Shown: in pieces, positions 2,689 to 45,724 of the stretch
How the letters are laid out: each line of letters opens with the position of its first letter
Numbering within the stretch: position 1 is the stretch's first letter
Notes under the pieces: model-generated
Told to the model about the DNA's origin: nothing
The model's database searches: none
Seen by the model: only the letters and a program-made list of their open reading frames with translations
Translations under genes and position numbers: made by a program
Assembly (NCBI GenBank): GCA_964597925.1
Contig: CAZQZT010000004.1
Location: 1 to 52,497, forward strand
Direction: 5' to 3'
Source of the DNA: an uncultured Candidatus Saccharibacteria bacterium
GTDB lineage: Bacteria > Patescibacteriota > Saccharimonadia > Saccharimonadales > JBBQAJ01
Length of the DNA: 52,497 bases

Positions 2689-2702
2689 AAAGCTAAATTC
2701 AA

Positions 2703-6684: not shown

Positions 6685-6743
6685 CCGCTAATTGTAGCAA
6701 AATAAAGAGGTTAATAACGTTGTTGTTTGGTATCGGCTTGTTT

Positions 6744-7394
6744 TTAGTTTTGGATCAAATCGTATGGAACATCAAAACCAACGTCTAGTACGCCAGCATC
6801 CATCGCTAGATAAACTCCAGCCACAATAACTATTAACATCACTAAGATTATGGTGGTACGCTGATTACGACGATGGGATACCTGAGCTTTTGGCACGAAA
6901 TATTTTTTTTCAGCTATTAGTTTTTGTACCTGCTCTTGTTTTGCCTTTTCGGCATCCGATAGTTCGTTTTTATTTTTCCGATCTATAGTTGCTTGATCAG
7001 TTACAGCATCAACAACCGCAGATTGTTCTGCCTGTTCTGCTTCTTGTTTTGGTTCTTGTTTTGTCTCTTCGGTTTCTAGATCTTCTTTTTCGGATGTCTG
7101 TGCAGTACTTTTTGCATCGTCGTCCCGGGTGACTTCATCCACTGAGGGCTGCTCTGCGTCTACATCTTCACTGACCGGTTTTATTATCTTTTCACTGTGC
7201 ATGGCCGGTTCTTGCTTAGATTCTTCAGCAATAACAGCCTTATTATTTTCTGGCTTTTCATTTTCTTTAACCATAGGGTCCTGAACCATGGGATGATGCG
7301 TAATTACAACTGGCCTGGCCGATATGTCAGGAGATGACTTTCCTGGCTTGGAAACATCCATGATTTTTTTATCTTGCGATTTACTGCTGACCAT
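6744..7394 (-). CDS. Hypothetical protein, charged low-complexity body with C-terminal TM
   Basis: 216-aa ORF in operon with tpiA (1-bp gap); single hydrophobic helix near the C-terminus. Confidence 0.7.
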   Translation of the reverse strand: MVSSKSQDKKIMDVSKPGKSSPDISARPVVITHHPMVQDPMVKENEKPENNKAVIAEESKQEPAMHSEKIIKPVSEDVDAEQPSVDEVTRDDDAKSTAQTSEKEDLETEETKQEPKQEAEQAEQSAVVDAVTDQATIDRKNKNELSDAEKAKQEQVQKLIAEKKYFVPKAQVSHRRNQRTTIILVMLIVIVAGVYLAMDAGVLDVGFDVPYDLIQN

Positions 7395-15499: not shown

Positions 15500-17122
15500 T
15501 TAGCTGTAGCGTCGACCAAGAATGAACTTGTGAACCAAGGCGCCAGCAATGGTAGCAGCCGCAAAGAGACCAACTACATCGCCAGGGCCAGTGTTTGGCA
15601 AAGCTGTTGTTGTAGTAGTCTCGATACATTCAGGACTGTCTTTTGGCAAGTTCTCTTTGCCAACAATTGGACATTTTTCGTCTTCTTTTGGAATCGTTAG
15701 GTTAGTTTTACATGTATCGCTTGTGTCAGATACCGTCTTGCCATCTACTACGAAATCAACCGTAACGGTTATTGTGTATGTACCGGGACCAGGGAACGTA
15801 TTGTCAATCTGACCATTCACTTGGTTACTGATAGCATCCACTTTGTAGCCAGAGCCCGTAAAGCTGTAGCGGTACTGTTTAACTACTGCACCATTCTTAG
15901 CAGTTGCATTAGTGGTGAAGCGGTATGTTTTGCCACTTACGAATGCTTTCTGTATCCCATCACAGTTATAGATAGGAGTTTCTGGTTTGTCGGGTTCGCA
16001 ATCGCTAATTACAACTTTTGCATCATTACTCTGTTCTGGAACATTATCTGCTCGCCCGAAAGCTGTGTTTTTGATTTCACAGACCTCTTTCGGGGCTGTA
16101 ATCTTGGTTTGGAAACGAATGACCCCATTACCATTGACGGCATAGTTGCCAACATTTACTCCACCACTACTGAGTGCGGTGTCTTGGAAGGTTTCACCGT
16201 TTTGGTGGTTAGCATCAATCCACGTTATAGAGCCTGGTACCAGTGTTAACCCTGTTGGTATTTGGTCACGAATAGTAATATTACGTGCAGTCTCACTGCC
16301 AGTATTTTTGTAGTCTATTCTCCATGAAATCGTTTCACCTCGTTTCGCAGTAACACTCTCGCTACTATCAGTAAGCTTCGGTGCTGCAACTTTAGAAACT
16401 CGTTTGTTAATTTCTAGATCTGGAGAGCTAATTTTAACTTTAACGTACACGTACGCAGAATATTCGAAACATCCGGGAACGTTGCCGTTCATAGCATCAT
16501 AGCCAATTTGTGTGCCGGCATTTGAGACAATTGCGTCAGAGAGAGCTAGGCCATTTTGGTTTACTTGATTATATAGTTTTGCAGAGCCTGGAACGTAAGC
16601 AACGCTAAATGCTTTGCTATCGTTTACCAATGTTGCGGTATCCCAAACTTTACTAGGAGTTGCATTGTCTGCAGTTATATCCGCAAGCACATCAACACCG
16701 TTTGCTGTGCCGCTGGCAATCTCTACGCTTACACGAGTGTTCTTAGCTACGCCAACACCATTATTGGTACTCTGGTTGGCGTTGTTGTGTACAAATGTAC
16801 GAACCCAGTACTCTTTGCCAGCAGTTGCTGTCTTAGTTTCGGAAAAGTTTGCCTGTACTGGACTTTGACCAGCAACTACTTCAGCTACGCGCACGAAGTT
16901 TCGCTCATCACCATATGTTGGGGTGTTGATGAAACTATTAAATACAGGACCGGTTAATGAACCTTTACGATCATCTGGATTGTTCCAGTCAAATGTTGGA
17001 CGGTTAGGGCCAAAACCAGCGCTAACTGCTACTGGCAGTGCGATCGCCAAGCCAACGGCTATTGCGGCGACGTATCGCTTAGGAGCGTTCCGTAGTTTGT
17101 TGAATAAATTTTTCATACTCAT
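15500..17122 (-). CDS. Cell-surface protein with DUF11 domain and LPXTG sorting signal
   Basis: Signal peptide; INKRVS...KRGETISWRIDYKNTG...ITIRDQIP (DUF11); C-terminal LPNTG + TM + GRRYS; SD AAGGAG before ATG 17122. Confidence 0.8.
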   Translation of the reverse strand: MSMKNLFNKLRNAPKRYVAAIAVGLAIALPVAVSAGFGPNRPTFDWNNPDDRKGSLTGPVFNSFINTPTYGDERNFVRVAEVVAGQSPVQANFSETKTATAGKEYWVRTFVHNNANQSTNNGVGVAKNTRVSVEIASGTANGVDVLADITADNATPSKVWDTATLVNDSKAFSVAYVPGSAKLYNQVNQNGLALSDAIVSNAGTQIGYDAMNGNVPGCFEYSAYVYVKVKISSPDLEINKRVSKVAAPKLTDSSESVTAKRGETISWRIDYKNTGSETARNITIRDQIPTGLTLVPGSITWIDANHQNGETFQDTALSSGGVNVGNYAVNGNGVIRFQTKITAPKEVCEIKNTAFGRADNVPEQSNDAKVVISDCEPDKPETPIYNCDGIQKAFVSGKTYRFTTNATAKNGAVVKQYRYSFTGSGYKVDAISNQVNGQIDNTFPGPGTYTITVTVDFVVDGKTVSDTSDTCKTNLTIPKEDEKCPIVGKENLPKDSPECIETTTTTALPNTGPGDVVGLFAAATIAGALVHKFILGRRYS

Positions 17123-17138
17123 CTTATTCTCCTTAGCT

Positions 17139-18293
17139 TTATTCGCATGCAGAACCACAAGGGCCTGCTACGGTTGTTGTTGTACCGTTACCCGCGATTG
17201 TTGTTGTCGTTGTTGAAGGACCAGTCTGGTCAGTAGGAGCTGTGGTGCTCGTTGTAGGGTAATCAGGACCTGGCTCTGGAGCCTCTACATCGTCCTCACC
17301 GCCAGGAACCGGAGACCAAGGACGCTTATCTGGTAGTGTTGTTGTAGTAGTACCCCTACGACCGGTTGTGGTTGTTTCGCCTTTACCAGCTGTGGAAGTA
17401 GTTTCTTCGCACTCTTCATTTGGTACAAACGTTTCTGGACGTTGGTCACCATTTTTTGGATTGCCATCAGCACCAATGCCGGTGTTGAATCCGATTATTG
17501 GCGTTGGGCAGTCCTCGTCTTTGCCCTTAAGCAAGGCCCCAAACATAAATGCTTCCGCGTCTTTAAATTGATTGTGCTTGGCAACCATTTCGGGTATGCG
17601 ATCAACACCTACGAATGCGTTGTCGTCGTAGCTAACATCAACGTCAGTCTTGCCAGTCTTCAGTCCTTCAGCATTGAGATTTGTCAGTACTGCTGAAAGG
17701 TTTTCAGCTAGGACAGTAAACTCATCATTGCGCTCAAGATGTGCTTCTACTTCTGTACGCTTCAGATCTGTTCCTAGTAAGTATTCGGCTTTTTCATCAA
17801 GTTCTTCTGGCTTAAGATCGGCGTACGGCTTCAGCCATTTTCCGGCTTCTGTATTAGCTAGGCGTTTGCCCTTATATATGACATTACCGAGTGTATAGGC
17901 AGTTGCTACGCTAAAAGGCGCATCTTCACACAGGCTAGCTTTAACTTCGGCTTCAGTATTATCACTTTCAAAAGGAGCGCGCATGGAGTTAGTCCATAGG
18001 CGTCCTTCCTGGTTGGCTCCGATGTCTGACTTAACAAGAGTAAAAGTATTGTTATCAAATTCGAGTTTATAAGTTTCACCAGTTCCGGCTTTGTCAACGA
18101 TCTCGACACAACTAGGATTATCTTGACCTGATACATCTAGCCATTCAGTTGGATTACTATCAGCAGATGCCGGTGTCTCTCCTCCTCGTGTAGCAAAAAG
18201 TGCGCCGCCGCCTACTAGAGCAGCGACTGCTAAAACACCGCCAAGTGCTCGTTTATTAACTTCACCTATGTCGCCATGTATTAATTCAGACAT
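17139..18293 (-). CDS. Hypothetical membrane-anchored exported protein with Thr/Pro-rich tail
   Basis: N-terminal TM; TTTT/P/G low-complexity C-terminus; 384-aa ORF with its own promoter. Confidence 0.65.
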   Translation of the reverse strand: MSELIHGDIGEVNKRALGGVLAVAALVGGGALFATRGGETPASADSNPTEWLDVSGQDNPSCVEIVDKAGTGETYKLEFDNNTFTLVKSDIGANQEGRLWTNSMRAPFESDNTEAEVKASLCEDAPFSVATAYTLGNVIYKGKRLANTEAGKWLKPYADLKPEELDEKAEYLLGTDLKRTEVEAHLERNDEFTVLAENLSAVLTNLNAEGLKTGKTDVDVSYDDNAFVGVDRIPEMVAKHNQFKDAEAFMFGALLKGKDEDCPTPIIGFNTGIGADGNPKNGDQRPETFVPNEECEETTSTAGKGETTTTGRRGTTTTTLPDKRPWSPVPGGEDDVEAPEPGPDYPTTSTTAPTDQTGPSTTTTTIAGNGTTTTVAGPCGSACE

Positions 18294-18437: not shown

Positions 18438-20642
18438 TTATGCTTTAGGAGGAGTCTTGTCTGAGTTTTCTGGTGACAGTTTGGCTTTTTCAAAGCTAAA
18501 GCCAAAGGTACTGCCTTTGCCTTCTTCGCTTTTAAATATAACTGCACCGCCTTGGGCTATAATGACCTTTTTGGCCATGAAGAGGCCTAGACCGGTGCCG
18601 TCTGGTCGAGCTTTTTTGGCATTTCTGGCACGGTAGAATTTGGTAAACAAATGATGCTGTTCGCTCTTTGGCACACCGATACCATCGTCATGCACGATGT
18701 ATTCTACCGTCTTACCAGATTCCCTTAATTCTACTGTTATATGTCCACCAGTAAGCGTGTAATAGATGGCGTTGTCCATAAAATTCATGATAACCTGCCT
18801 TATTTTTGTCTCGTCCAGCATTAGGGTTGGAAATGATTCTGGCTTATCGAAGGTAAGTGTCAAGCCTCTGGACTTAGCCGTGTCCTGGAGCTGACTAACT
18901 TCACCCTTGATTACATCTGCTAAGTTGCTGGCAATAGGTTCTATTATAAATTTGCCCGTACGCAAACGTGAAACGTTTAAGAGGTCGGCTATAAGGTATA
19001 CCATACGCTGACTACTCACAAATGCCTGATTTAGCAGTTTATTTTGCATTTCATTCAGATCACCTGCGTCACCCTCCAGAACCATGCTCAAATAGCCCTT
19101 TACACTAGTTAGCGGTGTCCGAAGTTGGTGAGAAGCCATACTGATAAACTCATCCTTGGTTTCATCCAAAGTTTTCAATTTTTCATTAGTAACCCGTAGT
19201 TGTTTTGTAGCGTCATCAACTTTGTCCCGTAAAGTTATGTTAAATTTCTCAATTTCCTCAAACCTAAGAGCATTCTGTATTGCGATCACTAACTCGTTGG
19301 CGATGATTTCAATAATCCTTATATCCTGCCTATTATAAGGATTGCCACTTTTCTTTGAACCCAACAAAAGATATCCGATACCTTCTTTGCCAGACTCTAT
19401 ATTACTGGTCAGGCGTGCGATTATAGCAATATCGTTTTTTCTCAATGCGCTGATGAATTCTTTGTTATTAAGAGTTAACTCATCTGTAACGACAACCCTA
19501 GTTGGTAATTTGCTTAAATTTTCACTAAACTTTCGTACATCGTCTTCGCTGATCGCCTTATTTTGGCCTCCAATATTACGACTATTAGAGTACGAAGTTC
19601 TACGAATTGTAAAACTACAATAAGACACCTTTAAGTGTTCCTGGACTACCTGGGCACAACCTTTTAATAACGGCTCTAGGTCAATAGTACTTACAAGCAT
19701 ACTGTTAAATTTATCCAGAAATTGTTGAGGGTCATACGCATCACGAAAAAATAATATATTAGTAACTCTATCAAAGAATCTTCTCAGCGAACTGAATGTA
19801 ACTGCGAGCATGATAGCGAGTCCGAGGTAAATAAAGTCATAAGCTAAACTATCAACCTGTCCTTGGAGGAACAGTTTATCAACGAGAACAAAAGCAAGCA
19901 CTGCATACAACAAACTAAATATTCCAATAGAAAACAAATATCCTAAGGCTCGAGCTATGATCAAGCGGATATCAAAGAGTCGATGTTTGATTATTGTGTA
20001 ACCAATGTCGGCGACAAGAATCAGCGTAAATACAGGGCCAAAGCGAGAACTAGACCAATTGTTAATAATAAGCGGTAATAACACATTTGCACTAACAGCC
20101 AGCACACAGTACGCAGCAATGCCAAACGAAATCAATTTTACTTGTTGTTTCTCTTTTGCACCGACAGCCATCTGGTTTTGACGGATTAGGATATACGCCA
20201 TCAGAAATAACATGTATATTACAAATAGAAGAAATAGTGGATACAGGAATGCAACCGTAATCGCTTCTTCTCCCTCAACAGAACTTACCGCGCTAATAAA
20301 ATATTGAGAGAACACCACCGGTACTAGTAAAACCGTAAACAGTTTACCTGCCCTTATCAACTTACTTGATTTAAATACTTTTGTGTCAGTAAAATTTGCA
20401 ATGAAGTTAATAATCCCAAAAGCTGATAGTACCCCAGCTAGAAAAGTTAGCCTGGTATATAGCAGACTATTTGCAAGTGAATTATCAGATAGGTAGTTGA
20501 AGATTGTCCAGGATACTAATGCTAATGCTACGAATGCGAAATTTTGATTGTCGTGTTGCTTCGGATTTCGGGCATACACAACCAGACCTAGTAAAAACAT
20601 AGCCGATGAACACGTGATAACTATCATGAAATCTATAGACAT
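18438..20642 (-). CDS. Sensor histidine kinase with N-terminal 7TM-type membrane domain and GAF-like region
   Basis: Multi-TM N-terminus; H-box SHQLRTPL, N-box NFMDNAIYYT, DDGIG, GTGLGL. Confidence 0.92.
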   Translation of the reverse strand: MSIDFMIVITCSSAMFLLGLVVYARNPKQHDNQNFAFVALALVSWTIFNYLSDNSLANSLLYTRLTFLAGVLSAFGIINFIANFTDTKVFKSSKLIRAGKLFTVLLVPVVFSQYFISAVSSVEGEEAITVAFLYPLFLLFVIYMLFLMAYILIRQNQMAVGAKEKQQVKLISFGIAAYCVLAVSANVLLPLIINNWSSSRFGPVFTLILVADIGYTIIKHRLFDIRLIIARALGYLFSIGIFSLLYAVLAFVLVDKLFLQGQVDSLAYDFIYLGLAIMLAVTFSSLRRFFDRVTNILFFRDAYDPQQFLDKFNSMLVSTIDLEPLLKGCAQVVQEHLKVSYCSFTIRRTSYSNSRNIGGQNKAISEDDVRKFSENLSKLPTRVVVTDELTLNNKEFISALRKNDIAIIARLTSNIESGKEGIGYLLLGSKKSGNPYNRQDIRIIEIIANELVIAIQNALRFEEIEKFNITLRDKVDDATKQLRVTNEKLKTLDETKDEFISMASHQLRTPLTSVKGYLSMVLEGDAGDLNEMQNKLLNQAFVSSQRMVYLIADLLNVSRLRTGKFIIEPIASNLADVIKGEVSQLQDTAKSRGLTLTFDKPESFPTLMLDETKIRQVIMNFMDNAIYYTLTGGHITVELRESGKTVEYIVHDDGIGVPKSEQHHLFTKFYRARNAKKARPDGTGLGLFMAKKVIIAQGGAVIFKSEEGKGSTFGFSFEKAKLSPENSDKTPPKA

Positions 20643-20759
20643 ATCGATGTAGTCCGGTGATTCAGCCTCATTTAAGCATTTGCGTAATCACTTCCATAAT
20701 AGCAGATTTAACTCCTATAGTATCTAGTTGTTAGCTCTATACTGATATAGTATTTGTAA

Positions 20760-21647
20760 ATGATACCGACATATCCTGATCTTGCACGTATAGATATTAA
20801 GCACGCTCGAAAAATCCGTGCCTTCACTTCACAATTTAGGCCATATTCTGATTTTAATTTTGTGAGTATGTTTTGTTGGGACATAGCTAACAATGTGGAA
20901 ATTTCAATGCTCAATAATAACCTCGTTATTATCTTGCCCGATTATGTTAATGCAACACCAGTCGTTTCGATACTTGGCAAAAATAAAATGGATAGTTCGC
21001 TCGACACTCTCCTTGGAGACAATGCTCAACTGAAGCTGATCCCCAAAATTGTAGTGTCTAATATCAAACATCCTAAAAAATTTTCTATAGTCGAAGATAG
21101 GGACAACCATGACTACATATATTCATCTCAAAAACTTTATTATCTGAGTGGTGGTGCGCTTAAGAAAAAGCGCTATAAACTTAACAGTTTTAAAAAGGCA
21201 TACGAAGGCACAATAGTAACTAAGATGCACCGAAAACTCGATGCTAAACTAGCTGACTCGATGCTTAATCTATTTGGTCTCTGGGAAAAGGAGTCATCTC
21301 AATCTGATGAAGAGATAGCGCTTGAAAAAACCGCATTTAAGAACTTTATCAAGCATGTGACTCACTTCGATATCTTTATACTAACTGTTTACATTAACAA
21401 TATACTAGTGGCTTTTTCGATTATGGAGATTGTTGGCAAAAAATACGGGATAGTTCACTTCGAGAAGGCACTAAAAATTCACGAGCACCTATCAGTATTT
21501 GTAGCGAGTGAATCGGCGAAAGTTATGTTGTACCACGATGTTAACTACATCAACTGGGAGCAGGACTTGGGCATAGAGGGGCTAAGAAAGTCAAAAATTA
21601 GCTTTAAGCCAGATAAATTTCTTAAGAAGTACGTTATTAAAAAGTAA
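20760..21647 (+). CDS. DUF2156 / MprF-LPG synthase C-terminal-like GNAT protein
   Basis: SDFNF, HDYIY, VHFEKA, YINWEQDLGIEGLRKSK..F.P...LKKY. Confidence 0.85.
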   Translation: MIPTYPDLARIDIKHARKIRAFTSQFRPYSDFNFVSMFCWDIANNVEISMLNNNLVIILPDYVNATPVVSILGKNKMDSSLDTLLGDNAQLKLIPKIVVSNIKHPKKFSIVEDRDNHDYIYSSQKLYYLSGGALKKKRYKLNSFKKAYEGTIVTKMHRKLDAKLADSMLNLFGLWEKESSQSDEEIALEKTAFKNFIKHVTHFDIFILTVYINNILVAFSIMEIVGKKYGIVHFEKALKIHEHLSVFVASESAKVMLYHDVNYINWEQDLGIEGLRKSKISFKPDKFLKKYVIKK

Positions 21648-22428
21648 CGAGTGGCAACTTAATGCCCATGCTATTAAAGATTGATTCTGTTTGGCTACTG
21701 TATGGAATGAAAACCGGCAGGGTTTCTACACCTTGCTCTGCTTCAGGCGTTTCCATTTCTTCCTCGCCCATGAGTAATTCATATTCAACCCCATTTTGAC
21801 GAAAAGAACTGCGTTGACGACCGTTCAATGTTGCGAAGACTCCAACTATATTTTCGGTTTGTTGCTCTTCTAAGTAAGCTTGAACAATCGCAAGATAGAC
21901 TATCATAGCAGTGCCAAACCCCTTAAACTTTTCAGCTCTTTCTCCAATAATAAAATTGGTCTCAACAGATACACAATTGTCCACGTCTACACCTTGTGAC
22001 TGATAATACTGATAGAACTGTTCTTTAGAAAAATTTCCTTTTTCTATGAGCGCATCAATGATATAAAATCCTGTTTCTGGAACGTTTTCTTTAGTCGTTG
22101 GCCGATTAATCGTAGCGCCGTGGACTACCGATTGTGCACCAGGTCGAGTATCTACAAGCGCCATGAACTCCGTGGTTATTTCTTCTTCCGCTGTTACCTC
22201 TTTTACCTCAGGAAAAAAAGTTGCCTCATGATTGCGAATAATATTTGCAAATTTGTGCTCTGGTTTAACCACGACAGATACGATACCCGGCTCCATAACT
22301 TGTGTTTTGACTACCGCAACAAGCTCGTCTTGTAGCTCACCCAACTTTTCTAGTGATAAATCATAATTTGGTAGTACCGGTTCAGTGCCTTCATGGCCAC
22401 TAGGCTTCATTTCAGATTGTAACGTCAT
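21637..22428 (-). CDS. Hypothetical protein, possibly GNAT/LuxI-FeeM-like acyltransferase fold
   Basis: 263-aa ORF, last gene of the decarboxylase operon; fold guess rests only on spaced motifs (IRNHE..FF, FMALVD, SVETNF, VFATLN). Confidence 0.45.
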   Translation of the reverse strand: MTLQSEMKPSGHEGTEPVLPNYDLSLEKLGELQDELVAVVKTQVMEPGIVSVVVKPEHKFANIIRNHEATFFPEVKEVTAEEEITTEFMALVDTRPGAQSVVHGATINRPTTKENVPETGFYIIDALIEKGNFSKEQFYQYYQSQGVDVDNCVSVETNFIIGERAEKFKGFGTAMIVYLAIVQAYLEEQQTENIVGVFATLNGRQRSSFRQNGVEYELLMGEEEMETPEAEQGVETLPVFIPYSSQTESIFNSMGIKLPLVTF

Positions 22429-22441
22429 GGCAACTCGCTTG

Positions 22442-23158
22442 CTATTCTTGTTTAATTTTCTTCTTTGCCCAATTTATTACCCCTACTGACGCTGCTATGC
22501 CTACAACGATTGGCACCATTATCTTAGGGTTAGTTGGGTCAGTTAGGCCTTCGCTAATAATAACACCTTGGATCGCACAAGCACCTGCAAGTAATCCTGT
22601 AGCCTTCAGCGCGTGTTTTCTGTTCTCCTCTGGTTTCATCGAAGGATTCTCCCGTTTTTTGGCGTACATTAACGCTGGTACACCGGCATAGTTAGTTATT
22701 ACAGCTTCGGCTAACGGGGAAACTCTTTTATCTTTTGGAACAATTTTATCTACCGCTTTATCTAAAACTTTTAGCGTTTTACTCGTATCTCGTTCAAGCA
22801 CGTCACCCATTGCAAGTGCGCCACCGCCTTCTACTAACAGTGTTGTTCCAACAAGTACGCCAACGCTTAACGGTACGTTTCCAGTTGATTTAAGAGTAGC
22901 GGCAAAAGCACCATAGCGTATTGGACCATTGGTTAAGGGATTAACCTCGACTGCAATAGCTATACGACCCAATGCTCGTCTGCCGACACTTAGTGCTCGT
23001 TGAACTTTGCTTTGTTCAGCTCCCGCATATACTACTTCTTCTTTAGGCGGCTCAATAGATAATTCGGCTTGTTGATCAATAGGAGCTTGATCTTCGTCTA
23101 TAGGTAGGTTAAGTAATACATCCGGACCTGTTATTTCAATATGTGCAGCGTCTGTCAT
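22442..23158 (-). CDS. Hypothetical membrane protein
   Basis: Several hydrophobic segments; 5-bp and 13-bp gaps to its neighbours. Confidence 0.65.
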   Translation of the reverse strand: MTDAAHIEITGPDVLLNLPIDEDQAPIDQQAELSIEPPKEEVVYAGAEQSKVQRALSVGRRALGRIAIAVEVNPLTNGPIRYGAFAATLKSTGNVPLSVGVLVGTTLLVEGGGALAMGDVLERDTSKTLKVLDKAVDKIVPKDKRVSPLAEAVITNYAGVPALMYAKKRENPSMKPEENRKHALKATGLLAGACAIQGVIISEGLTDPTNPKIMVPIVVGIAASVGVINWAKKKIKQE

Positions 23159-23163
23159 TGTTT

Positions 23164-23673
23164 CTAATCCTGTACCTTATGCGCACCGTTTTCCCAGTCA
23201 CTAGCTTGATATACGGCAACCACCATAGCGCAGACAGGCTGATGTTTGCACGTCTTTCCAACGACTTTTGTCTTAATTTTTCCAAAATCGACATTACGCG
23301 TGGCCATGAGTGCTGTTAGGCTTTGTTCGATATCATTTTTTACGGCCTTTTCACTCTCTCCTTGATGTTCAACAAATAATCCCTTGCCCGTTGCCTTATC
23401 TTGAACCCATCCAATTCCAGCCCAAGCTTCTGCATTGGGCTGTACTTCACGTTGTTCGGCCATGACCACATATAGTCTATCACCCCATTCCCCGGGCATT
23501 GTACTAGGCGAAATTCCCTCTTTACCTTGATCGACAATAGTGGTTTTAGGTGGGATAACTGAGCTCAATCGAATTAAATTATAGTTTGCAATACCTGCAT
23601 GATTTAAGGCTGCATCAAAAGCAGACAATTTAGTTGGACCGGTACCGATTCCAGCTGTAACGTGTATATTCAT
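23164..23673 (-). CDS. Pyruvoyl-dependent arginine decarboxylase
   Basis: G.G.TKLSAFDAAL..AGIANYNLIRLSSVIP with Ser-Ser self-cleavage site; GLFVEH. Confidence 0.88.
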   Translation of the reverse strand: MNIHVTAGIGTGPTKLSAFDAALNHAGIANYNLIRLSSVIPPKTTIVDQGKEGISPSTMPGEWGDRLYVVMAEQREVQPNAEAWAGIGWVQDKATGKGLFVEHQGESEKAVKNDIEQSLTALMATRNVDFGKIKTKVVGKTCKHQPVCAMVVAVYQASDWENGAHKVQD

Positions 23674-23838
23674 ATCTCTCCAGCTTAAAGCGTATTAATT
23701 TAAAAATGACGCCTCAGATGCATTACTACAAATGTAATAATGAAAATGGGACGTCAACTAAATCTTCTAAAGTACGATATGAATTATAGAAAAAAAGAGT
23801 TATAATGTCAATAATATAATATAGTCACAAAATTGCAA

Positions 23839-24231
23839 ATGAGTAAAATTGCCGTTATAGAAGACGATAATCTGATCCGCGAAATGTACAAGTTGAAACT
23901 TGAACGTTCTGGGTATGAGGTTTGTCTTGCTGAAAATGGAGAAATAGGCTGGCAGATTGTTTCTGATGAGCGTCCGGACTTGATACTACTTGATTTGATG
24001 CTGCCCGAGATGAACGGTGACGTATTATTACAAAAATTGCGTGAAACAAAATGGGGAGCCGACATCCGTGTTGTAGTCTTAACTAATATCAGCAAAGATG
24101 AAGCACCAAGTTCATTGAGACTACTGAATGTTGAACGATATATCGTTAAAGCTCACCACACCCCTTCTCAGGTACTTGAAATAGTGAATGAAATATTAGG
24201 CAAAAAAGCAAGCCCTACCAGTCATAAATGA
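23839..24231 (+). CDS. Single-domain response regulator (receiver only)
   Basis: IEDD, LLDLMLP, LTN, IVKA. Confidence 0.92.
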   Translation: MSKIAVIEDDNLIREMYKLKLERSGYEVCLAENGEIGWQIVSDERPDLILLDLMLPEMNGDVLLQKLRETKWGADIRVVVLTNISKDEAPSSLRLLNVERYIVKAHHTPSQVLEIVNEILGKKASPTSHK

Positions 24232-24426
24232 TAATTTGATACGATACCACTTTCAAGCAATGCTACTTGTGCCGAATCCTGCAAAAAACCCGTTAGGCTT
24301 CGGCTATATTTTATAATATCTGAATCGATTATCTTTACTCGTTCATTTATTAACCCAATTATGATGTTTACCACCATAATCAGTTGCTGTGTATGCTATT
24401 TGAAGTTGTTAGCATAGAATGTACCT

Positions 24427-24807
24427 ATGGCTAAAATAGTATTGGTTGAAGATGATGTAATGTTGGCGGAAATATACCAAACACGACTGAAACTAGCTGG
24501 TCATGTTTGCCTAGTTGCAAATGACGGTATGACTGGTTTGTCGCTGATAGAGCATGAACTGCCAGAACTCGCCCTGCTAGATCTGATGCTTCCAAACATG
24601 TCTGGTGATAATATCTTGAGACATATGCGCGAAACTGAATGGGGTAAAAATATGAAAGCTATATTTCTTACCAACATCAGCGAATCAGAGGCGCCGGAAA
24701 ACCTGAAGGAACTCAACTTTGAACGCTACATCGTAAAAGCTAACCCTTCAAACAGCGAATTAGAGGATATTATTGCCGAAACGCTAGCGCAAGCGCCCCA
24801 AACGTAA
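24427..24807 (+). CDS. Single-domain response regulator (receiver only)
   Basis: VEDD, LLDLMLP, LTN, IVKA. Confidence 0.92.
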   Translation: MAKIVLVEDDVMLAEIYQTRLKLAGHVCLVANDGMTGLSLIEHELPELALLDLMLPNMSGDNILRHMRETEWGKNMKAIFLTNISESEAPENLKELNFERYIVKANPSNSELEDIIAETLAQAPQT

Positions 24808-24833
24808 TAGGATTAGACTAGAAAGTAACCAAT

Positions 24834-25202
24834 ATGATTAAAGTAGCAATAATCGAAGACGACCAAGCAATATCACAAATGTACCGCATTAAATTCGAGG
24901 CGGATGGGTACGATGTAGAAACAGCCGAGAATGGCAGACTTGGACTTGAGCTTATCGAGAAAATGCGCCCGGTCATAATATTACTAGACCTGATGATGCC
25001 AGAAATGACCGGTCATGAAATGCTTCAAAAAATGCGTAAAACAGATTGGGGCAAAGACATACTAGTTATCATCCTTACCAATATGGGTGAACAGGAAGCA
25101 CCCTCTATGCTCAAAGAGCTGGGCGTAAAACGCTTTATTTTAAAAGCTGAGATGACCCCTCGCCAGGTTGTCGAAATGGTCAAGTCTGAGTTGGCTTCCT
25201 AA
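24834..25202 (+). CDS. Single-domain response regulator (receiver only)
   Basis: IEDD, LLDLMMP, LTN, ILKA. Confidence 0.92.
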   Translation: MIKVAIIEDDQAISQMYRIKFEADGYDVETAENGRLGLELIEKMRPVIILLDLMMPEMTGHEMLQKMRKTDWGKDILVIILTNMGEQEAPSMLKELGVKRFILKAEMTPRQVVEMVKSELAS

Positions 25203-29388: not shown

Positions 29389-29463
29389 AAGCATAAGCCT
29401 ATTGGAGGGCCCCTCCTTTGCAATAGCTTCGGTGGGCAGGCATCGTAGACGTTATCGCAACTA
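29389..29463. repeat. tRNA-Lys 3'-end junction J2 (30 bp extra between core and arm)
   Basis: AAGCATAAGCCTAT-TGGAGGGCC-N30-ATCGTAGACGTTATCGCAACTA. Confidence 0.8.
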
Positions 29464-29546
29464 TATTTCAATACCCAATACCTGGTCAACAAAAAATTTT
29501 GTGCGTGTTGACTGTTTAATTTTTATTCATGATATTACAAAGACCC

Positions 29547-29583
29547 TTGACATATCTGTATACATAGCATACAATGTATACAT
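29547..29583 (+). promoter_or_regulatory. Promoter/operator of the TA pair
   Basis: TTGACA-N17-TACAAT, ATG 6 nt later; two TGTATACA palindromes overlap it. Confidence 0.8.
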
Positions 29584-29830
29584 GAGTAGAATTCAGTATA
29601 CAATTAGAAATATTCCTGCACCCGTAGATAAAGTTATTAAAAAACGAGCAAAACAGTCTGGTAAGTCATTCAATCAGACAGTTGTGGACATTTTGGCAAT
29701 GCAAACTTTTGGCTCGACAGATTTACATATAGAAGAGAGCTTTGATTGGTTATATAACAATAATACTCTCGATGACTCTTTTGATGAGGCAATAAAAGAT
29801 ATATCAAAAATAGATAAGAAGATTTGGTGA
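29582..29830 (+). CDS. Ribbon-helix-helix antitoxin (FitA/VapB-like)
   Basis: QYTIRNIP..VD..IKKRAK..GKSFNQ.VVDIL; directly upstream of a PIN gene. Confidence 0.8.
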   Translation: MSRIQYTIRNIPAPVDKVIKKRAKQSGKSFNQTVVDILAMQTFGSTDLHIEESFDWLYNNNTLDDSFDEAIKDISKIDKKIW

Positions 29831-29834
29831 TAAT

Positions 29835-30224
29835 ATGTCCTTTATTTTGGATACCAGCGCTTACTCGGCCTTCAATCGAGGTGATAAACGTTTAAGGGCG
29901 TGGTTTACACCTGACAGAGACATTATCGTACCAATCATAGTGTTAGGTGAATTACGTTCGGGCTTTGCTGTCGGTAATAGATTTGAGGAAAACGAGAAGC
30001 TTCTACAGAGATTTCTTGATAGCCCAAATGTCACGGTACAGACCATAACGGATAAAACTACAGTAATATATTCACAGATTTATCTTAAACTTCGCGCTAT
30101 AGGCAGGCCAATTGGTACAAATGATATGTGGATAGCAGCGATAGCTCTTGAATTAGATAACGAACTCCTGACTTTGGATGAAGATTTTGCGAATGTACCA
30201 GATTTAATGATAGGTAAAATATAG
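29835..30224 (+). CDS. vapC: VapC family PIN-domain toxin
   Basis: ILDTSAY, LGEL, NDMWIAAIA, LLTLDEDF. Confidence 0.9.
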   Translation: MSFILDTSAYSAFNRGDKRLRAWFTPDRDIIVPIIVLGELRSGFAVGNRFEENEKLLQRFLDSPNVTVQTITDKTTVIYSQIYLKLRAIGRPIGTNDMWIAAIALELDNELLTLDEDFANVPDLMIGKI

Positions 30225-34323: not shown

Positions 34324-34830
34324 ATGAGCAAAATATCAGTGAATGAAGCATATCAAAAGGGCTACATCTATACACTCAGTGAACCTTCTGGTAAAAACTT
34401 CGAATCTGATTTCAAGCCACAGCTCACACCAGAACAAATGTTAAAGCTTGGGATTTTTGGCGGATTTTATTTTACCTGCATCCCGGCTGAATTCCCAGCT
34501 AGCTGGTTTGATGGGGTAGAATTTACCAAAACAGGGCACGCCGATGCTAGTTTAAATTTTTTCAAAGTAAACGCTAGTCAGCCACTGGAAGTCTGGCAGA
34601 AAAAGGGCTGGATATATTTCGAGGACCCTAAGGGTTGGTTTTTATGGTACTGCCGGTACTACCTGGGAAGAAGAATTCCTGAAGAAGATGCTCGCCAGAT
34701 AAAACGCTGGAGAGCTATAACAAGGCACATCAGCCAGATACAAAAGGTGTGTCAGCCAGGTGATTTATCTTGCAGACCTCGGCAACGCCAAGCATTACTA
34801 CACTGGGCATACGATTCACGCAAGCTATAA
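34324..34830 (+). CDS. Conserved hypothetical protein
   Basis: Trp/Arg-rich 168-aa ORF (LTP.QML.LG.FGG...DP.GWF.WYCRYY.GRR...RQI.RW...RQ.LLHWAYD); own -10 box. Confidence 0.75.
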   Translation: MSKISVNEAYQKGYIYTLSEPSGKNFESDFKPQLTPEQMLKLGIFGGFYFTCIPAEFPASWFDGVEFTKTGHADASLNFFKVNASQPLEVWQKKGWIYFEDPKGWFLWYCRYYLGRRIPEEDARQIKRWRAITRHISQIQKVCQPGDLSCRPRQRQALLHWAYDSRKL

Positions 34831-35676
34831 ATATGCCTGTATCAGAACCATAGTAATACAAAAACCGGCAAACCAATTGAGCCAAATAAAACGTCTCCAC
34901 CCCGCATTGGCAGATTCGGCTGTTTTGTCAGTTATGGCTCTGAATGGATAAATATTTACGACATATGCCAGGCATATAAACGCACACACTAGCCCTGCCC
35001 CTCCACGAGTTGCCAACAACAGCGCACTAGCCGTGTACAGCCCTCCCGCCAGCCGTGTGGTTATTCGAGCGCCTAACACGGTTCCAATCGAACTAATCTT
35101 GCCCGCTCTATCTGCGGGGATGTCTTGTACCGCACCAAAAGCATGGCTAGCCATACCCCATAAAAAGAAAGCAAAAACATATGGCAAAAAGCTTGTTTGC
35201 CAGCCCGCCAGCACTAGTCCGTACACCAGTGGTCCAACGAAATGACTGCTTGAAGTTATAGAGTCAATGAATGGTCGCTCTTTGAAGCGTAACTTTGGAA
35301 GACTGTATGCCAATACCATGAACACAACTGCACCAAGCGTAAGCTTTGCAGACAAACCACCCCACGTAAACATAACAGCGAGAACTGGGATGTTAGTGAT
35401 AAATACCCCTCGTAATATGGTCTTGTGTTGAGCTTTTGCGAGCACAGCCCCTTCTATGCCACCTTTACGTGGATTCAGTATGTCCGATTCATAATCAAAT
35501 ACATCGTTTACGCCATACATCATCAGGTTGTACGGAATTAGGAAATATATAGTGCCCACCAAAAACTGCCACGAAGCCTGGTGTGAGACTAAAATATAGC
35601 CGGCCCCAAACGGATAAGCAGTATTCAGCCATGAAATTGGCCTAGACGATAACAAAATATAACGCAAGTTTTTCAT
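34825..35676 (-). CDS. crtEb: UbiA-family lycopene elongase (C50 carotenoid)
   Basis: SSRPISWLNTAYPF, NDVFDYESD..NPRKGG.EG, AFGAVQDI..DR; last gene of the crt operon. Confidence 0.85.
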   Translation of the reverse strand: MKNLRYILLSSRPISWLNTAYPFGAGYILVSHQASWQFLVGTIYFLIPYNLMMYGVNDVFDYESDILNPRKGGIEGAVLAKAQHKTILRGVFITNIPVLAVMFTWGGLSAKLTLGAVVFMVLAYSLPKLRFKERPFIDSITSSSHFVGPLVYGLVLAGWQTSFLPYVFAFFLWGMASHAFGAVQDIPADRAGKISSIGTVLGARITTRLAGGLYTASALLLATRGGAGLVCAFICLAYVVNIYPFRAITDKTAESANAGWRRFIWLNWFAGFCITMVLIQAYL

Positions 35677-35960
35677 GGCGATTTATTGCGCTCCCAAAGC
35701 ACGGGTACTATCAAGCCAGCTACGACCGTATAAGCAAAATCTTCTAACGGCACCCTCCCTATATAGAAACCCAAAATATAACGTAAATCATAGCTAACAA
35801 GATTTAGCGCTATAATGATACTATCAAATATGGCAGTCAAAACCACTAGCACGACAATGGTTTTTATAATTGGCTTAGCAGAAAGTTCTACCCTGGACAG
35901 CTTTACCACCAACACAGTCACAACTAAAAAAATAATATTCAGCAGAGCATACCTATACAC
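35673..35960 (-). CDS. C50 carotenoid cyclase subunit (CrtYf/CrtYh-like)
   Basis: LTAIFDSII...G.VPLEDFAY; GTG start overlaps the upstream stop. Confidence 0.8.
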   Translation of the reverse strand: MYRYALLNIIFLVVTVLVVKLSRVELSAKPIIKTIVVLVVLTAIFDSIIIALNLVSYDLRYILGFYIGRVPLEDFAYTVVAGLIVPVLWERNKSP

Positions 35961-36267
35961 TTCGTTCCTCCAAAGCCCGCCATACAAGCAGGGCAGTGTA
36001 AGTAAGCAATATTAGGAAAAATAACTCCTCGAATGGAAAATCTTTCCCAACCATTAAACCTGTACTATATACTCCGCCCCCATCAGAAAAAATTCCAAGA
36101 ACGATGCCCAAAATATCCCAGAGTACAAAAACTCCAATAGCTGGAAGCAGTGTCCTGAATGTGCGTCGTCGGTCTTTAAAAAAAGCTAGTTTGTATCTAT
36201 AGTCAAATAGTCCCATGCCCAAAATCGCCAGCAAAAGTCCGGTTATATATACGAGATGTTGCCACAT
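35953..36267 (-). CDS. C50 carotenoid cyclase subunit (CrtYe/CrtYg-like)
   Basis: DYRYKLAFF...FVLWD..G...G.F...PFEELFFL. Confidence 0.8.
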   Translation of the reverse strand: MWQHLVYITGLLLAILGMGLFDYRYKLAFFKDRRRTFRTLLPAIGVFVLWDILGIVLGIFSDGGGVYSTGLMVGKDFPFEELFFLILLTYTALLVWRALEERSV

Positions 36268-37790
36268 TATCCTATTGCTCCTTTTATCGGACCTCTGGTT
36301 TTGTCACCCGTGATTTGTTTGTACACCAACTCTGCACTGATCAAACACATGGGCACGCCTATACCCGGCTGAACGTTCGCGCCTACGTAGTACAAGTTTT
36401 TGGTCTTTTTGCTTCGGGTACGAGGACGCAACATGGCGCTTTGTCGTAGTTCGTGTCCAAGACCAAGTGCCGTACCTTTCCATGAATTGTAGTCATTGTA
36501 AAAATCCGCCGGTCCATATAGTTCCTTGGTTACTATACGTTCAGCAAAGTCTATGACACCAGACTGCTCAGCTATCTGCTGGATGTACAGTTCGGCATAT
36601 TCCTCTAACTTATCGGCATGCAGATTTGGATTTGCCGGTAGCGGAACTAGTACAAATACATTTTCGTGACCTTTTGGTGCTACCGAACTATCTGTTTGGC
36701 TAGACTTACAGACGTATATAGAGGCTGGGGTTGGCCACTCTTTGGCTTCGGCTATTTTCGCAAAATTTTCTTTCCAATCCTTAACAAAGAACAAGTTGTG
36801 ATGCTTGAGCTGAGGCAATGAACCTTTAACTCCTAAATACATCAACAAAGCTGAAGGTCCAGCTTGGCGTTTTTTCCAATATGAGCTTGGATAGTCTTGA
36901 GCATGTGTGGGTAATAATTTTGTCTGCGTAAAATGCATGTCGGCATTTGAAATAACTATGTCTGATAAAATTTGTGATCCATCATTCATACGTAAACCCG
37001 TGGCTTCTTTATCTTGAATCTCTATGGCCTTGACCGCTTTGTTCAAGTAAAATTTAACACCGAGATTTTTACCTATGCGTACCATACTCTCCGTTACCGA
37101 ATACATACCACCCTGGGGATAATAAACTCCCTGGCGAAAATCCAAATAACTCATAAGATGATAGATAGCCGGCACTTTAAATGGAGAAGATCCTAGAAAT
37201 ACAGATGGGTATTCCAAAATTTGCCTAAGGCCGGGGTCTTTAAAATGTTTGCCTGTAAGTTTGTTCATGGTTTGTTGAGCGTTTTTTAACATAGCTGGGC
37301 CATGACGCAACAAACCTGGTCTCATAAAATTACGTGGTGATTCAAATGTTGTGTACAAAAAGTTTTCTAGTGCCAGTTTATAGATTTTTTCTGCACTATC
37401 TAAGTAGTTAATAAGGGCCTCACCTGCGCCAGTTTCGCGTCTTTCAAACATTTCTGCATCTGCTTTCTCGTCCCCCGTTATCACGAGCGGATTTTTTTCG
37501 CTTTCTAAAAACACTTGGTACGCGGGCTCTAGCTTAGTCAGCTTCAGCTGGGATTTGGTAGACGAACCTAGTATTTCAAAAAAATGATCGAAGACCTCTG
37601 GCATCAAATACCACGAAGGACCAGTGTCAAAACGAAAACCGTCTTTTGCTAGCATGCCCATTCGGCCACCGAGCTGGCTCCTAGCTTCGTATACACTTAC
37701 TTCGTACCCAGCTTTTGCTAACAAATTCGCAACAGCTAGGCCACCTACTCCTGCCCCAACTATTGCAACTGTTGTTTTATTTTTTGTCAC
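36267..37790 (-). CDS. crtI: Phytoene desaturase
   Basis: GAGVGG, GFRFDTGPSWYLMP, YYPQGG, YYVGA..QPG.GVP; GTG start at 37790. Confidence 0.93.
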   Translation of the reverse strand: MTKNKTTVAIVGAGVGGLAVANLLAKAGYEVSVYEARSQLGGRMGMLAKDGFRFDTGPSWYLMPEVFDHFFEILGSSTKSQLKLTKLEPAYQVFLESEKNPLVITGDEKADAEMFERRETGAGEALINYLDSAEKIYKLALENFLYTTFESPRNFMRPGLLRHGPAMLKNAQQTMNKLTGKHFKDPGLRQILEYPSVFLGSSPFKVPAIYHLMSYLDFRQGVYYPQGGMYSVTESMVRIGKNLGVKFYLNKAVKAIEIQDKEATGLRMNDGSQILSDIVISNADMHFTQTKLLPTHAQDYPSSYWKKRQAGPSALLMYLGVKGSLPQLKHHNLFFVKDWKENFAKIAEAKEWPTPASIYVCKSSQTDSSVAPKGHENVFVLVPLPANPNLHADKLEEYAELYIQQIAEQSGVIDFAERIVTKELYGPADFYNDYNSWKGTALGLGHELRQSAMLRPRTRSKKTKNLYYVGANVQPGIGVPMCLISAELVYKQITGDKTRGPIKGAIG

Positions 37791-38622
37791 TTTTTGTTCT
37801 TCGTAATTTATTTGTAACCAGGTTCTTGCCAAGCAAATTTAATTTTATTGCGTTATTTACGCGAATTCGTTTTTTTTTGATCCCAGCAACTGACGATTTA
37901 TCTAGTTTTCCTAGTAAGCGCCAGTAGTATTCGTATGCTGAAATAACAGCCGGCCTGGCACCCGATGGCAATTTATTAATTGCTGGTAATGCATCTGTAA
38001 AATCTTTCTTAATGTCTAGCACTATGATTTCCTTGTCCTTATCATCAAAATTCTCGTAACTACAGTCCGGAAAATAAAAACGATTCAACTCTTCGAAGTC
38101 AAATACTATGTCTCGTAAAAAATTTACTTTTTGAAATGCAGACCCCAAGGCACGAGCACCTGGTTCTAGGCTTTTAAATTCTGCCATAGTATTCACAAAT
38201 ACCTTCAAACACATAAGTCCGACTACCTCAGCCGAACCATCTATGTATTTATCATACAAAACTTTATCGAATTGTTGTGATTTGGTATCTAGTTTCATGC
38301 TGTAAAAAAACGGTTCTATGAGTGTTTTATCAATACTGCGCTTATTTGCTGTCAGCTGAAATGCATGAACTATCAAATTAGAACTAAAGTTTCTTTTAAT
38401 TGCATCGTATACTTCACACTCAAGCATCTCAATCTGTGAAATGGCATCTTGGCCGGAGTAAGTGTCAACAATTTCATCAGCAATGCGCACCAAGCCATAT
38501 ATGTTATATATATCACCACGTATTTCTGGTGTAAAAAGTCTAGTAGCCAACCCGAAGGAGTTTGAATAATAATTCGTAACTAATCTAGCTGTTTTTTGAG
38601 AAACAATATTATAAGTATCCAC
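37777..38622 (-). CDS. crtB: Phytoene synthase
   Basis: YS.SF.LA, VRIADEIVD, GSAEVVGLMCL, LG.AFQKVNFLRD. Confidence 0.93.
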   Translation of the reverse strand: MDTYNIVSQKTARLVTNYYSNSFGLATRLFTPEIRGDIYNIYGLVRIADEIVDTYSGQDAISQIEMLECEVYDAIKRNFSSNLIVHAFQLTANKRSIDKTLIEPFFYSMKLDTKSQQFDKVLYDKYIDGSAEVVGLMCLKVFVNTMAEFKSLEPGARALGSAFQKVNFLRDIVFDFEELNRFYFPDCSYENFDDKDKEIIVLDIKKDFTDALPAINKLPSGARPAVISAYEYYWRLLGKLDKSSVAGIKKKRIRVNNAIKLNLLGKNLVTNKLRRTKSDKK

Positions 38623-42811: not shown

Positions 42812-43031
42812 GCACTAAATCACAGATCTATTGTATCAGTAGCGTCATGTGATTGGAAGATGTTACCGATGCGTGTGTTTGAGTGCAGTTTGAGGGGAAG
42901 ATTAAGCACTGAAGTGGAGGCGTACTTTCGGTACGCCGTAATGATGATTGGAGGTTTTGGCCCAAAATATGCCAAACACGCGTGTTGTCCATATTGCAAT
43001 TTATACCCCAATTGATATAATATTTTGGTCT

Positions 43032-44613: not shown

Positions 44614-44736
44614 CTAGCGACCTAGGGTGTCTAATATATTGGATTGAAATCCAGTACGTAACCACACAATAAAGCCGAGTGCTACTAGGATAAGCGTAAC
44701 CAATATGACTGTTCGGTGCCATTCTTTTAGATTCAT
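44614..44736 (-). CDS. 40-aa single-TM small protein coupled to sortase
   Basis: MNLKEWHRTVILVTLILVALGFIVWLRTGFQSNILDTLGR*; ATGA overlap with the sortase stop; absent from the ORF track. Confidence 0.5.
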   Translation of the reverse strand: MNLKEWHRTVILVTLILVALGFIVWLRTGFQSNILDTLGR

Positions 44737-45317: not shown

Positions 45318-45339
45318 ATATATTGTATACACCTTTTCC

Positions 45340-45509
45340 AAGAACCTGATCTAATCCCCCCGTTGATAAGTAAAACCGAAGCAGCAACCATGATTTTTTC
45401 TGTCTTTTCTTATGCCAAAATATAACCGTAGGTACATTTTGAATTAAAAAAGATAGAAAAAGTGGTTGACCTTCTGTTTTAGCCGATGGGGGGATTAGGT
45501 CAGGCTCTT
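45340..45509. other. 170-bp imperfect fold-back (rod-like hairpin) element
   Basis: 22-bp terminal arms AAGAACCTGATCTAATCCCCCC / GGGGGGATTAGGTCAGGCTCTT plus three further nested complementary blocks. Confidence 0.7.
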
Positions 45510-45724
45510 AGAGTAAATAACCAGGTTGTGCACAATTGTGAGAATAATCACCCAATTAGATGTTGCATAATTGTAAATTAAGTAGCATAATGAAGGAAAA
45601 GAAAAAGAGTTTGGTGAAACGATATCGGGGGCGAAGATACATTTCCTATATGTGGTCGCTTGGGATATGTGGAGCCAATAGCGAATCCAACCATATCACT
45701 CTTATAATAATAAGGAGCATTGGT

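Follow-up and report, generated by a model that had tools for sequence, protein, structure and literature searches.

A conserved gene block in a Saccharibacteria contig: candidate membrane-associated synthesis of a cationic conjugate of agmatine, linked to a sensor of its own

The locus described here lies on contig CAZQZT010000004.1 of an uncultured Candidatus Saccharibacteria bacterium, of which a stretch of 52,497 nucleotides was analysed (hereafter the window; all coordinates are those of the whole window). At positions 18438-25202, eight genes bring together a homologue of pyruvoyl-dependent arginine decarboxylase (PvlArgDC), a putative acyltransferase denoted X, a hydrophobic protein denoted MEM, a DUF2156 protein, a sensor kinase and three receiver proteins (RR1 to RR3). 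The features are listed below, with lengths in amino acids (aa).

18438..20642, minus strand: polytopic sensor histidine kinase, 734 aa (HisKA_7TM, HisKA, HATPase_c)
20760..21647, plus strand: free-standing DUF2156 (LPG_synthase_C) protein, 295 aa (PF09924, E 1.6e-19)
21637..22428, minus strand: X, putative acyltransferase, 263 aa (predicted LuxI/FeeM-like fold)
22442..23158, minus strand: MEM, hydrophobic protein, 238 aa (hydropathy; homology to the N-termini of X fusions)
23164..23673, minus strand: PvlArgDC homologue (PF01862, E 1.1e-27)
23783..23811, minus strand: TTGACA-17-TATAAT promoter-like match (12 of 12 consensus positions; pattern match only)
23833..24231, plus strand: RR1, receiver-only regulator (Response_reg, E 1.6e-19; likely ATG at 23839, giving 130 aa)
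24427..24807, plus strand: RR2, receiver-only regulator (Response_reg, E 2.8e-15)
24834..25202, plus strand: RR3, receiver-only regulator (Response_reg, E 2.3e-20)

A preliminary description had listed these eight genes, and open reading frames (ORFs) combined with domain scans recovered every one of them in place and with the domains described. The proposed divergence of the kinase and DUF2156 genes was seen as well, with a spacer of 117 base pairs (bp) in between, and the gaps of 5 bp and 13 bp within PvlArgDC-MEM-X are consistent with the single operon that had been suggested. The three receiver-only genes do diverge from this operon, RR1 and the decarboxylase gene being separated by about 160 bp, and the X and DUF2156 genes converge with an 11-bp overlap. 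A consensus match of the sigma-70 type sits upstream of the operon and is a candidate promoter by pattern only; over the whole region, promoter-like matches were no more frequent than in shuffled sequence. An Rfam scan revealed no riboswitch within the gene block, and the RNA runs gave three tiny contigs only over the locus.

The block was followed through a neighbourhood set of 24 metagenomic loci plus contigs obtained by exact protein look-up, divided by guanine-plus-cytosine (GC) content into low-GC (0.31-0.50) and high-GC (0.62-0.67) members. About 15 diverged low-GC loci share the order receiver(s), PvlArgDC, X preceded by MEM or by a further domain termed G, DUF2156 where present (mostly convergent with X), and kinase. 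The decarboxylase gene directly adjoins X or an X fusion in all 13 distinct low-GC loci that reach that side, and in five high-GC loci or contigs. A kinase gene stands directly after the cassette in 15 of the 15 low-GC loci that extend far enough, and in L031, which is devoid of the decarboxylase, a sensor gene still follows X. Most low-GC loci also carry folD-(murI or murL)-murD beside the receivers, and the linkage is to this extent ordinary synteny. This caveat is answered by L040, because its five-gene block is intact despite changed flanks: the murD/folD side is replaced by a beta-lactamase-like gene, ABC1 and groES/EL.

The gene context differs in the high-GC loci. Here DUF2156, X and PvlArgDC form an operon with 4-base overlaps, followed by a gene for a membrane GGDEF-EAL protein; in L002, the latter gene begins at the final base of the PvlArgDC gene. 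A membrane sensor gene comes directly after the cassette in all four high-GC loci long enough to show it. Window and high-GC proteins share 54% identity in the case of PvlArgDC, 38% in that of X and 21% in that of DUF2156. The high-GC neighbours NIF3, a zinc-ribbon protein and His_Phos_1 recall the gene order of actinobacteria. The genes are consequently linked in relatives, with L040 and the high-GC variant included. The window itself recurs in freshwater sediment metagenomes, and the contig of one block-carrying relative encodes a GroEL that has been deposited under 'Patescibacteria group bacterium'.

It should be noted that one low-GC locus, L038 (HUA13104.1, HUA13110.1; GC 0.43), is deposited as 'Candidatus Sulfotelmatobacter sp.' (Acidobacteriota). 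Because of its GC content and its synteny with both the window and the Patescibacteria-deposited contig, the metagenome-assembled genome behind it is probably mis-binned or mislabelled. The same locus (Ga0335073_10000323) encodes at 5889-7175 a MurL epimerase (MurL_N plus MurL_epimerase_C) in place of the glutamate racemase MurI of the window. Within an otherwise shared gene order, one route to the D-glutamate of the wall precursor thus appears to have replaced the other.

Comparison of X with Pfam and NCBIfam revealed no curated family and a sub-threshold GNAT hint only (Acetyltransf_8, E 0.009). The 20 closest relatives of X likewise gave no match to Pfam, Autoind_synth (PF00765) and PF13444 included, even at E ≤ 10, and two X-family profiles matched none of the PDB sequences. 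By contrast with these sequence searches, structure prediction was informative. The AlphaFold model of X, built with 20 homologues, reached a predicted local distance difference test score (pLDDT) of 82 and a predicted TM score (pTM) of 0.81. Foldseek placed acyl-homoserine lactone (AHL) synthases at the top of the PDB matches of this model, namely BjaI (E 7.6e-6, TM 0.49/0.59), EsaI, LasI, TofI, MesI and RpaI, and eight PDB matches were obtained at E ≤ 1e-3. The N-acyl amino acid synthase FeeM (2g0b) was also matched (E 4.5e-3). A second AlphaFold model, of a fusion relative 39% identical to X, again had AHL synthases as its best PDB matches. The LuxI/FeeM acyltransferase fold that had been guessed for the 21637-22428 protein is hence borne out by two models at the level of the fold; by sequence, X belongs to neither family. 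Since it has no match in Pfam, in NCBIfam or among the PDB sequences, X is, judged by its modelled structure, the founding member of a new family of the GNAT superfamily with a predicted LuxI/FeeM-like fold. Within the pathway outlined below it is a putative N-acyltransferase acting on agmatine.

The X family is genuine but rare. An exhaustive profile search returned 174 representatives (50%-identity clusters) among 1.84 billion cluster representatives, and no member turned up when the 185,579 species-representative genomes of GTDB were scanned twice; six pattern hits were attributed to chance, and the pattern used does match the window, L038 and L040. The family alignment shows R65, E68, F72, D93, R95 and E156 as invariant. 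The invariant acidic residues of X are numerous (E68, E74, D93, D125, E156 and E229) and would suit a cationic substrate. A comparison with PADLOC gave nothing meaningful, and a role of X in anti-phage defence is unsupported by the sequence searches (Pfam, NCBIfam, PADLOC and PDB sequences).

MEM, encoded between the decarboxylase and X, matched no family in Pfam or NCBIfam. Its hydropathy indicates about four to five hydrophobic helices, and two alignments (A4 and A5) hold N77, T106, E110, G159, R180 and G204 invariant, the polar ones among these (N77, T106, E110 and R180) falling inside the hydrophobic helices. In the model of the fusion relative, the MEM half is all-helical and has no PDB match among the 50 matches listed. 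A word-indexed search with MEM found one relative. The fusions are found among the 42 X-family representatives of at least 400 aa: 30 of them carry N-terminal MEM homology (phmmer E down to 7e-37), seven are fusions of X to G, a domain of about 280 aa with a classical GNAT motif, and in five the N-terminal part is unassigned. Locus L027 has MEM, G and X as three consecutive genes. Because of these fusions and of this gene order, MEM and X are taken to work together, with X often paired with a second transferase, and MEM would be the membrane partner or anchor of X. As the Lys-rich C-terminus of MEM runs straight into X in the fusions, we infer that X sits at the cytoplasmic face of the membrane. 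G itself occurs as its own gene (L027 757-1602) or fused to X (L028 9128-10747; L033 1151-2770), and was seen only where DUF2156 is absent, which suggests that G substitutes for DUF2156.

The fusions and the linkage data bear on the reading that there is no common pathway at all. In this case, the decarboxylase would supply agmatine or polyamines or serve pH homeostasis by consuming protons, X and DUF2156 would be unrelated acyltransferases, and the arrangement would be inherited synteny. The extended folD-(murI)-murD-receivers-cassette-kinase order in most low-GC loci is in line with such an explanation, and so is the fact that archaeal and chlamydial PvlArgDC enzymes serve to make polyamines or to resist acid. 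However, MEM-X and GNAT-X fusions exist, the DUF2156-X-PvlArgDC operon is translationally coupled in an unrelated high-GC context, and L040 retains the block with different flanks. Moreover, the window ORFs scanned against Pfam include no agmatinase, no antiporter and no other polyamine gene. We regard the absence of a common pathway as the least probable of the explanations considered here. The acid-resistance variant of the Chlamydia type was rejected, as no antiporter-like gene is present among these ORFs.

The PvlArgDC homologue scores 97.4 bits against PF01862 (cut-off 22.7; E 1.1e-27). Its residues N32, S37/S38, D20 and E102 align with N47, S52/S53, D35 and E109 of the Methanocaldococcus jannaschii (M. 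jannaschii) enzyme. None of these residues varies among 15 homologues linked to the cassette, whose identity to the window protein is 54-73% across both lineages. In the M. jannaschii enzyme, Asp35 binds the guanidinium group, the Ser-Ser pair is the site of self-processing assisted by the Asn, and the Glu is catalytic. By analogy, the proenzyme of the window is predicted to cleave itself between Ser37 and Ser38. The statement that the decarboxylase yields agmatine is supported in part: family membership and catalytic residues are kept, but the protein stays below the NCBIfam equivalog cut-offs for TIGR00286 (67 bits; cut-off 107) and NF009064 (57 bits; cut-off 207). Owing to these scores, arginine specificity is something that we infer, on good grounds, rather than read from the family assignment.

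The same scores are what would speak for an acylated amine other than agmatine, produced by the same pathway logic from another basic amino acid, together with the observation that the cassette-linked proteins form a tight subfamily of their own in both lineages. Against such a shift in substrate stand the invariance of Asp20, the counterpart of Asp35, and that of Glu102 and the Asn/Ser-Ser processing motif; to our knowledge, every characterised member of PF01862 is an arginine decarboxylase. A different amine is accordingly judged improbable.

The DUF2156 protein was said to resemble the aminoacyl-tRNA-dependent domain of MprF, and it is indeed a member of PF09924 (70.5 bits; cut-off 27.5; E 1.6e-19), with 2hqy as its closest PDB sequence (E 7e-14). 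The match covers residues 108-293 of 295, and an N-terminal membrane flippase domain of the MprF type is absent. A Lys/Arg-rich segment (LKKKRYKLNSFKK, about residues 134-146) would lie between the two halves of the protein; in sequence it aligns with segments of 2hqy and of the L002 homologue that are likewise rich in Arg. The DUF2156 protein of the high-GC operon is a full-length homologue at 21% identity (E 1e-17). The gene adjoins X in 12 low-GC loci and in four high-GC loci or contigs. Free-standing DUF2156 members are active aminoacyl-tRNA transferases, all tested enzymes discussed aminoacylate a lipid, and substrate specificity is not readable from sequence (PMC8913301). The window protein is a putative aminoacyl-tRNA-dependent transferase.

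A transferase of this kind could also act on the cell wall. Agmatine or an amino acid would then be attached to peptidoglycan precursors or to polymers resembling teichoic acid, as modelled on tRNA-dependent branching of the FemX type or on polyamine-linked peptidoglycan, and the kinase would be a sensor of envelope stress. We consider this improbable, on a par with a different amine. The presence of murD and murI/murL next to the block in most low-GC loci fits wall decoration, and so do the sortase-type, Gram-positive-like surface proteins of the organism and the tandem-GNAT, tRNA-dependent architecture that DUF2156 shares with Fem transferases. Yet the cassette persists outside the murD neighbourhood in L040 and in the high-GC loci, and a GNAT acyltransferase alone cannot amidate an unactivated carboxylate with agmatine. 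Furthermore, all tested DUF2156 members discussed in PMC8913301 act on a lipid, not on muropeptides.

The kinase was assigned by Pfam to HisKA_7TM (31.7 bits; cut-off 28.6), HisKA (1.1e-16) and HATPase_c (3.6e-24). About eight to nine hydrophobic segments occupy residues 1-290; HisKA and HATPase_c follow in this order towards the C-terminus, and the intervening middle region has no family assignment. The H-box SHQLRTP and the DxGxG and GxGLG boxes are readable in the translation, as are the Asp, Thr and Lys positions of the receivers, and with the HisKA plus HATPase_c kinase and three Response_reg receivers the two-component domain set is complete. Kinase orthologues in the low-GC loci match with E 1e-158 to 1e-267 where covered over their full length, and the sensor region is conserved among these loci (invariants W45, Q167, P190 and L222-F223-D224 in alignment A9). 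The three receivers span 122-132 aa. Among them, RR3 is conserved most widely, with orthologues in all low-GC loci reaching that side, L040 included (E 1e-51 to 1e-61); RR1 (130 aa in public gene calls) has orthologues in nine loci, and RR2 is an extra copy seen only in the lineage of the window, other loci carrying one or two receivers.

Downstream of the kinase, at 15500-18293 (minus strand), lie genes for a Thr-rich secreted protein and for a DUF11/CLIPPER surface protein with a terminal LPNTG sorting signal. Several relatives also encode proteins of the DUF11 type downstream of their kinase.

The preliminary description had placed a receptor among the enzymes and the operon under two-component control. 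Of the former, the position holds: both lineages have a sensor gene after the cassette. Between the lineages, on the other hand, the sensor domains are unrelated. The latter is weakened in its transcriptional sense, since all regulators are receiver-only.

These data are relevant for a signalling circuit, in which the same enzymes would make an acyl- or aminoacyl-agmatine small enough to diffuse; the polytopic sensor encoded next to them would detect it and the receivers would relay it in a quorum- or host-sensing loop. The layout would be comparable to LuxM/LuxN, CqsA/CqsS or LqsA/LqsS/LqsR. In favour of a circuit, autoinducer synthases are the nearest folds of X; a membrane sensor gene stands after the cassette in every locus long enough to tell (15/15 low-GC, 4/4 high-GC) and also after X in L031; the GGDEF-EAL start in L002 coincides with the last base of the PvlArgDC gene; and stand-alone receivers are partners in the Legionella Lqs system. 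Conversely, neither BLASTP nor hhalign (probability 0.08) revealed homology between the sensor domain of the kinase and that of the GGDEF-EAL protein, so that no conserved receptor is evident, and the synthase would be membrane-tethered, unlike the LuxI enzymes known to us. DUF2156 enzymes, for their part, modify lipids (PMC8913301). A circuit of this kind is unlikely in our estimate, albeit the closest competitor to the reading that we favour.

A bolder extension is less probable again: that the product of the cassette is a bacterial messenger of a new class, namely an N-acyl- or aminoacyl-agmatine that is released from the membrane and read by dedicated polytopic sensors. Actinobacteria are the known host group of cultivated Patescibacteria, and because near-identical enzyme sets occur in ultra-small Patescibacteria and in high-GC, Actinobacteria-like genomes (54% identity for PvlArgDC), such a messenger, if real, could be a chemical language common to epibiont and host. 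It would also give the candidate phyla radiation its first described system of cell-cell signalling.

In summary, our tentative reading is that the locus encodes a pathway at the membrane which makes a cationic conjugate of agmatine and is coupled to a sensor of its own. A cationic aminolipid or envelope modification that is retained by the cell is ranked first, with some reserve, because of the membrane tether, the lipid-modifying DUF2156 family and a domain logic like that of OlsF and MprF. The released signal comes second, on the grounds of the autoinducer-synthase fold and of the sensor gene found after the cassette in either lineage.

The retained aminolipid could arise in four steps. The pyruvoyl enzyme would process itself at Ser37/Ser38 and decarboxylate arginine to agmatine in the cytoplasm; the family is established and the substrate proposed. 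X, held at the inner membrane face by MEM, would then acylate the primary amine of agmatine, a chemistry suggested by its predicted fold, with a thioester (acyl-CoA or acyl carrier protein) as the presumed acyl donor. The product would be N-acyl-agmatine, an aminolipid resembling ornithine lipid but devoid of the carboxylate, and hence carrying a net positive charge. The sequence from arginine via agmatine to N-acyl-agmatine appears simplest because the decarboxylase leaves a primary amine and GNAT enzymes of the LuxI/FeeM type acylate amines from thioesters. In a third step, DUF2156, where present, may take an amino acid from aminoacyl-tRNA and esterify it to a hydroxyl group of this product or of a different membrane lipid; the classical GNAT domain G would replace DUF2156 in some relatives. 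Finally, the amphiphile would remain in or cross the membrane and alter the charge or composition of the envelope. The kinase and the CheY-like receivers, or the membrane GGDEF-EAL protein in the high-GC loci, would couple production to a membrane or envelope cue, with an output via protein-protein contacts and no direct DNA binding.

Several observations weigh against this pathway, beyond the partial synteny and the equivalog scores described above. X falls outside the Pfam models of LuxI and of N-acyl-amino-acid synthases. DUF2156 is absent from six low-GC loci (a third), three of which carry G instead. Pfam and NCBIfam detected neither a DNA-binding nor an enzymatic output in the three receivers, which consist of the receiver domain only, and direct transcriptional control of the operon is unsupported for this reason. 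The literature searched contained no agmatine lipid. Patescibacteria are reported to be devoid of lipid synthesis (PMC11665869), so that the acyl source for X is a problem.

Likewise, the literature searched contained no paper linking these genes (PvlArgDC with DUF2156; Saccharibacteria and Patescibacteria papers) and none on bacterial acyl-agmatines. What is new is the X family, the MEM domain, and the combination of a pyruvoyl decarboxylase, a LuxI/FeeM-like transferase tethered to the membrane and a dedicated sensor; the superfamilies involved are known. How Patescibacteria build, remodel and sense their envelope and recognise their hosts is largely unknown (PMC11665869), and the block is among the few compact, conserved and enzymatically interpretable loci that bear on this question. 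It predicts a specific and easily detected chemistry, i.e. agmatine-containing amphiphiles, and the high-GC operon version may be easier to express. If the predictions hold, a cationic agmatine lipid would be a new class of aminolipid, and an agmatine-based signal a new class of autoinducer.

Other features of the window are recorded here in their own right. A c-di-GMP-II riboswitch (RF01786, 55.1 bits; gathering score 53.5) at 45618-45700 (plus strand) lies directly upstream of a giant SpaA-repeat pilin/adhesin gene at 45740-50743 (plus strand; about 1,670 aa, ten SpaA_2 repeats), and a sortase gene at 44733-45341 (minus strand) adjoins this pair, an arrangement that suggests surface adhesion controlled by cyclic di-GMP in this small genome. 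A complete-looking carotenoid cluster at 34825-39701 (minus strand) encodes, in this order, a polyprenyl synthase, a phytoene synthase, a CrtI-like desaturase, two small lycopene-cyclase subunits and a UbiA prenyltransferase. Its layout is that of actinobacterial C50-carotenoid clusters and would not be expected in a genome like that of Patescibacteria. An RpfB-like protein (DUF348 repeats and a G5 domain) at 1891-4010 (minus strand) adjoins KsgA (RrnaAD) as in mycobacteria, which is another actinobacterial-looking trait. A MurA-type enolpyruvyl transferase (EPSP_synthase family) at 42948-44552 (plus strand) has an N-terminal HTH_3 DNA-binding domain. Finally, a small ribbon-helix-helix (RHH)-like protein followed by a PIN-domain protein at 29402-30224 (plus strand; Pfam labels from an identical public contig) is likely a toxin-antitoxin pair of the VapBC/FitAB type.

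Among known systems, the LuxI-type AHL synthases BjaI, EsaI, LasI, TofI, MesI and RpaI are the best structural matches of X, and the proposed chemistry is similar: LuxI enzymes acylate, from an acyl thioester, the amine on a substrate with a cationic tail. X differs in the missing PF00765 match, in being about 60 aa longer, in its membrane tether or fusion and in its pairing with an amine-supplying decarboxylase. Unlike LuxI systems, the locus has no LuxR-type regulator, and nothing at it points to the use of S-adenosylmethionine, at which no search was aimed. The position of a synthase gene beside a polytopic membrane sensor kinase is shared with LuxM/LuxN. In the Lqs and Cqs systems, a synthase gene is likewise found with a gene for a multi-transmembrane kinase and, in Lqs, with a receiver devoid of a DNA-binding domain. 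The likeness to Legionella Lqs and Vibrio Cqs is one of layout only, as LqsA and CqsA depend on pyridoxal phosphate, make alpha-hydroxyketones and have no homology to the biosynthetic genes here. The PvlArgDC of M. jannaschii and Chlamydia AaxB (AaxABC) belong to the same family as the window protein, with the same Ser-Ser site and conserved Asn, Asp and Glu. The subfamily of the window is distinct and paired with acyltransferases, not with an arginine/agmatine antiporter or polyamine enzymes.

FeeM, a fold match, and OlsB N-acylate an amino compound to give an amphiphile, as proposed for X. In contrast to these enzymes, X has no PF13444 match, and its proposed acceptor is decarboxylated, so that the product would have no carboxylate. 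Bifunctional OlsF joins a second acyltransferase domain to an N-acyltransferase, and the G-X fusions share this two-transferase layout, whereas MEM, G and DUF2156 are unrelated to OlsA-type acyltransferases. The DUF2156 domain has its named comparators in the aminoacyl-phosphatidylglycerol synthases and in fungal ErdS/ErgS. It also accounts for the likeness to MprF, together with MEM-X, in which, as in MprF, a transferase of the GNAT type is linked to a membrane domain. Both fusion layouts, anchor plus transferase or two transferases, are in this sense reminiscent of OlsF and MprF. Unlike MprF, the DUF2156 protein of the locus has no flippase domain and is missing in a third of the low-GC loci, and the regulators have no DNA-binding domains. 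Cationic envelope modification tied to a sensor kinase is a known theme, MprF being regulated by two-component systems such as GraRS.

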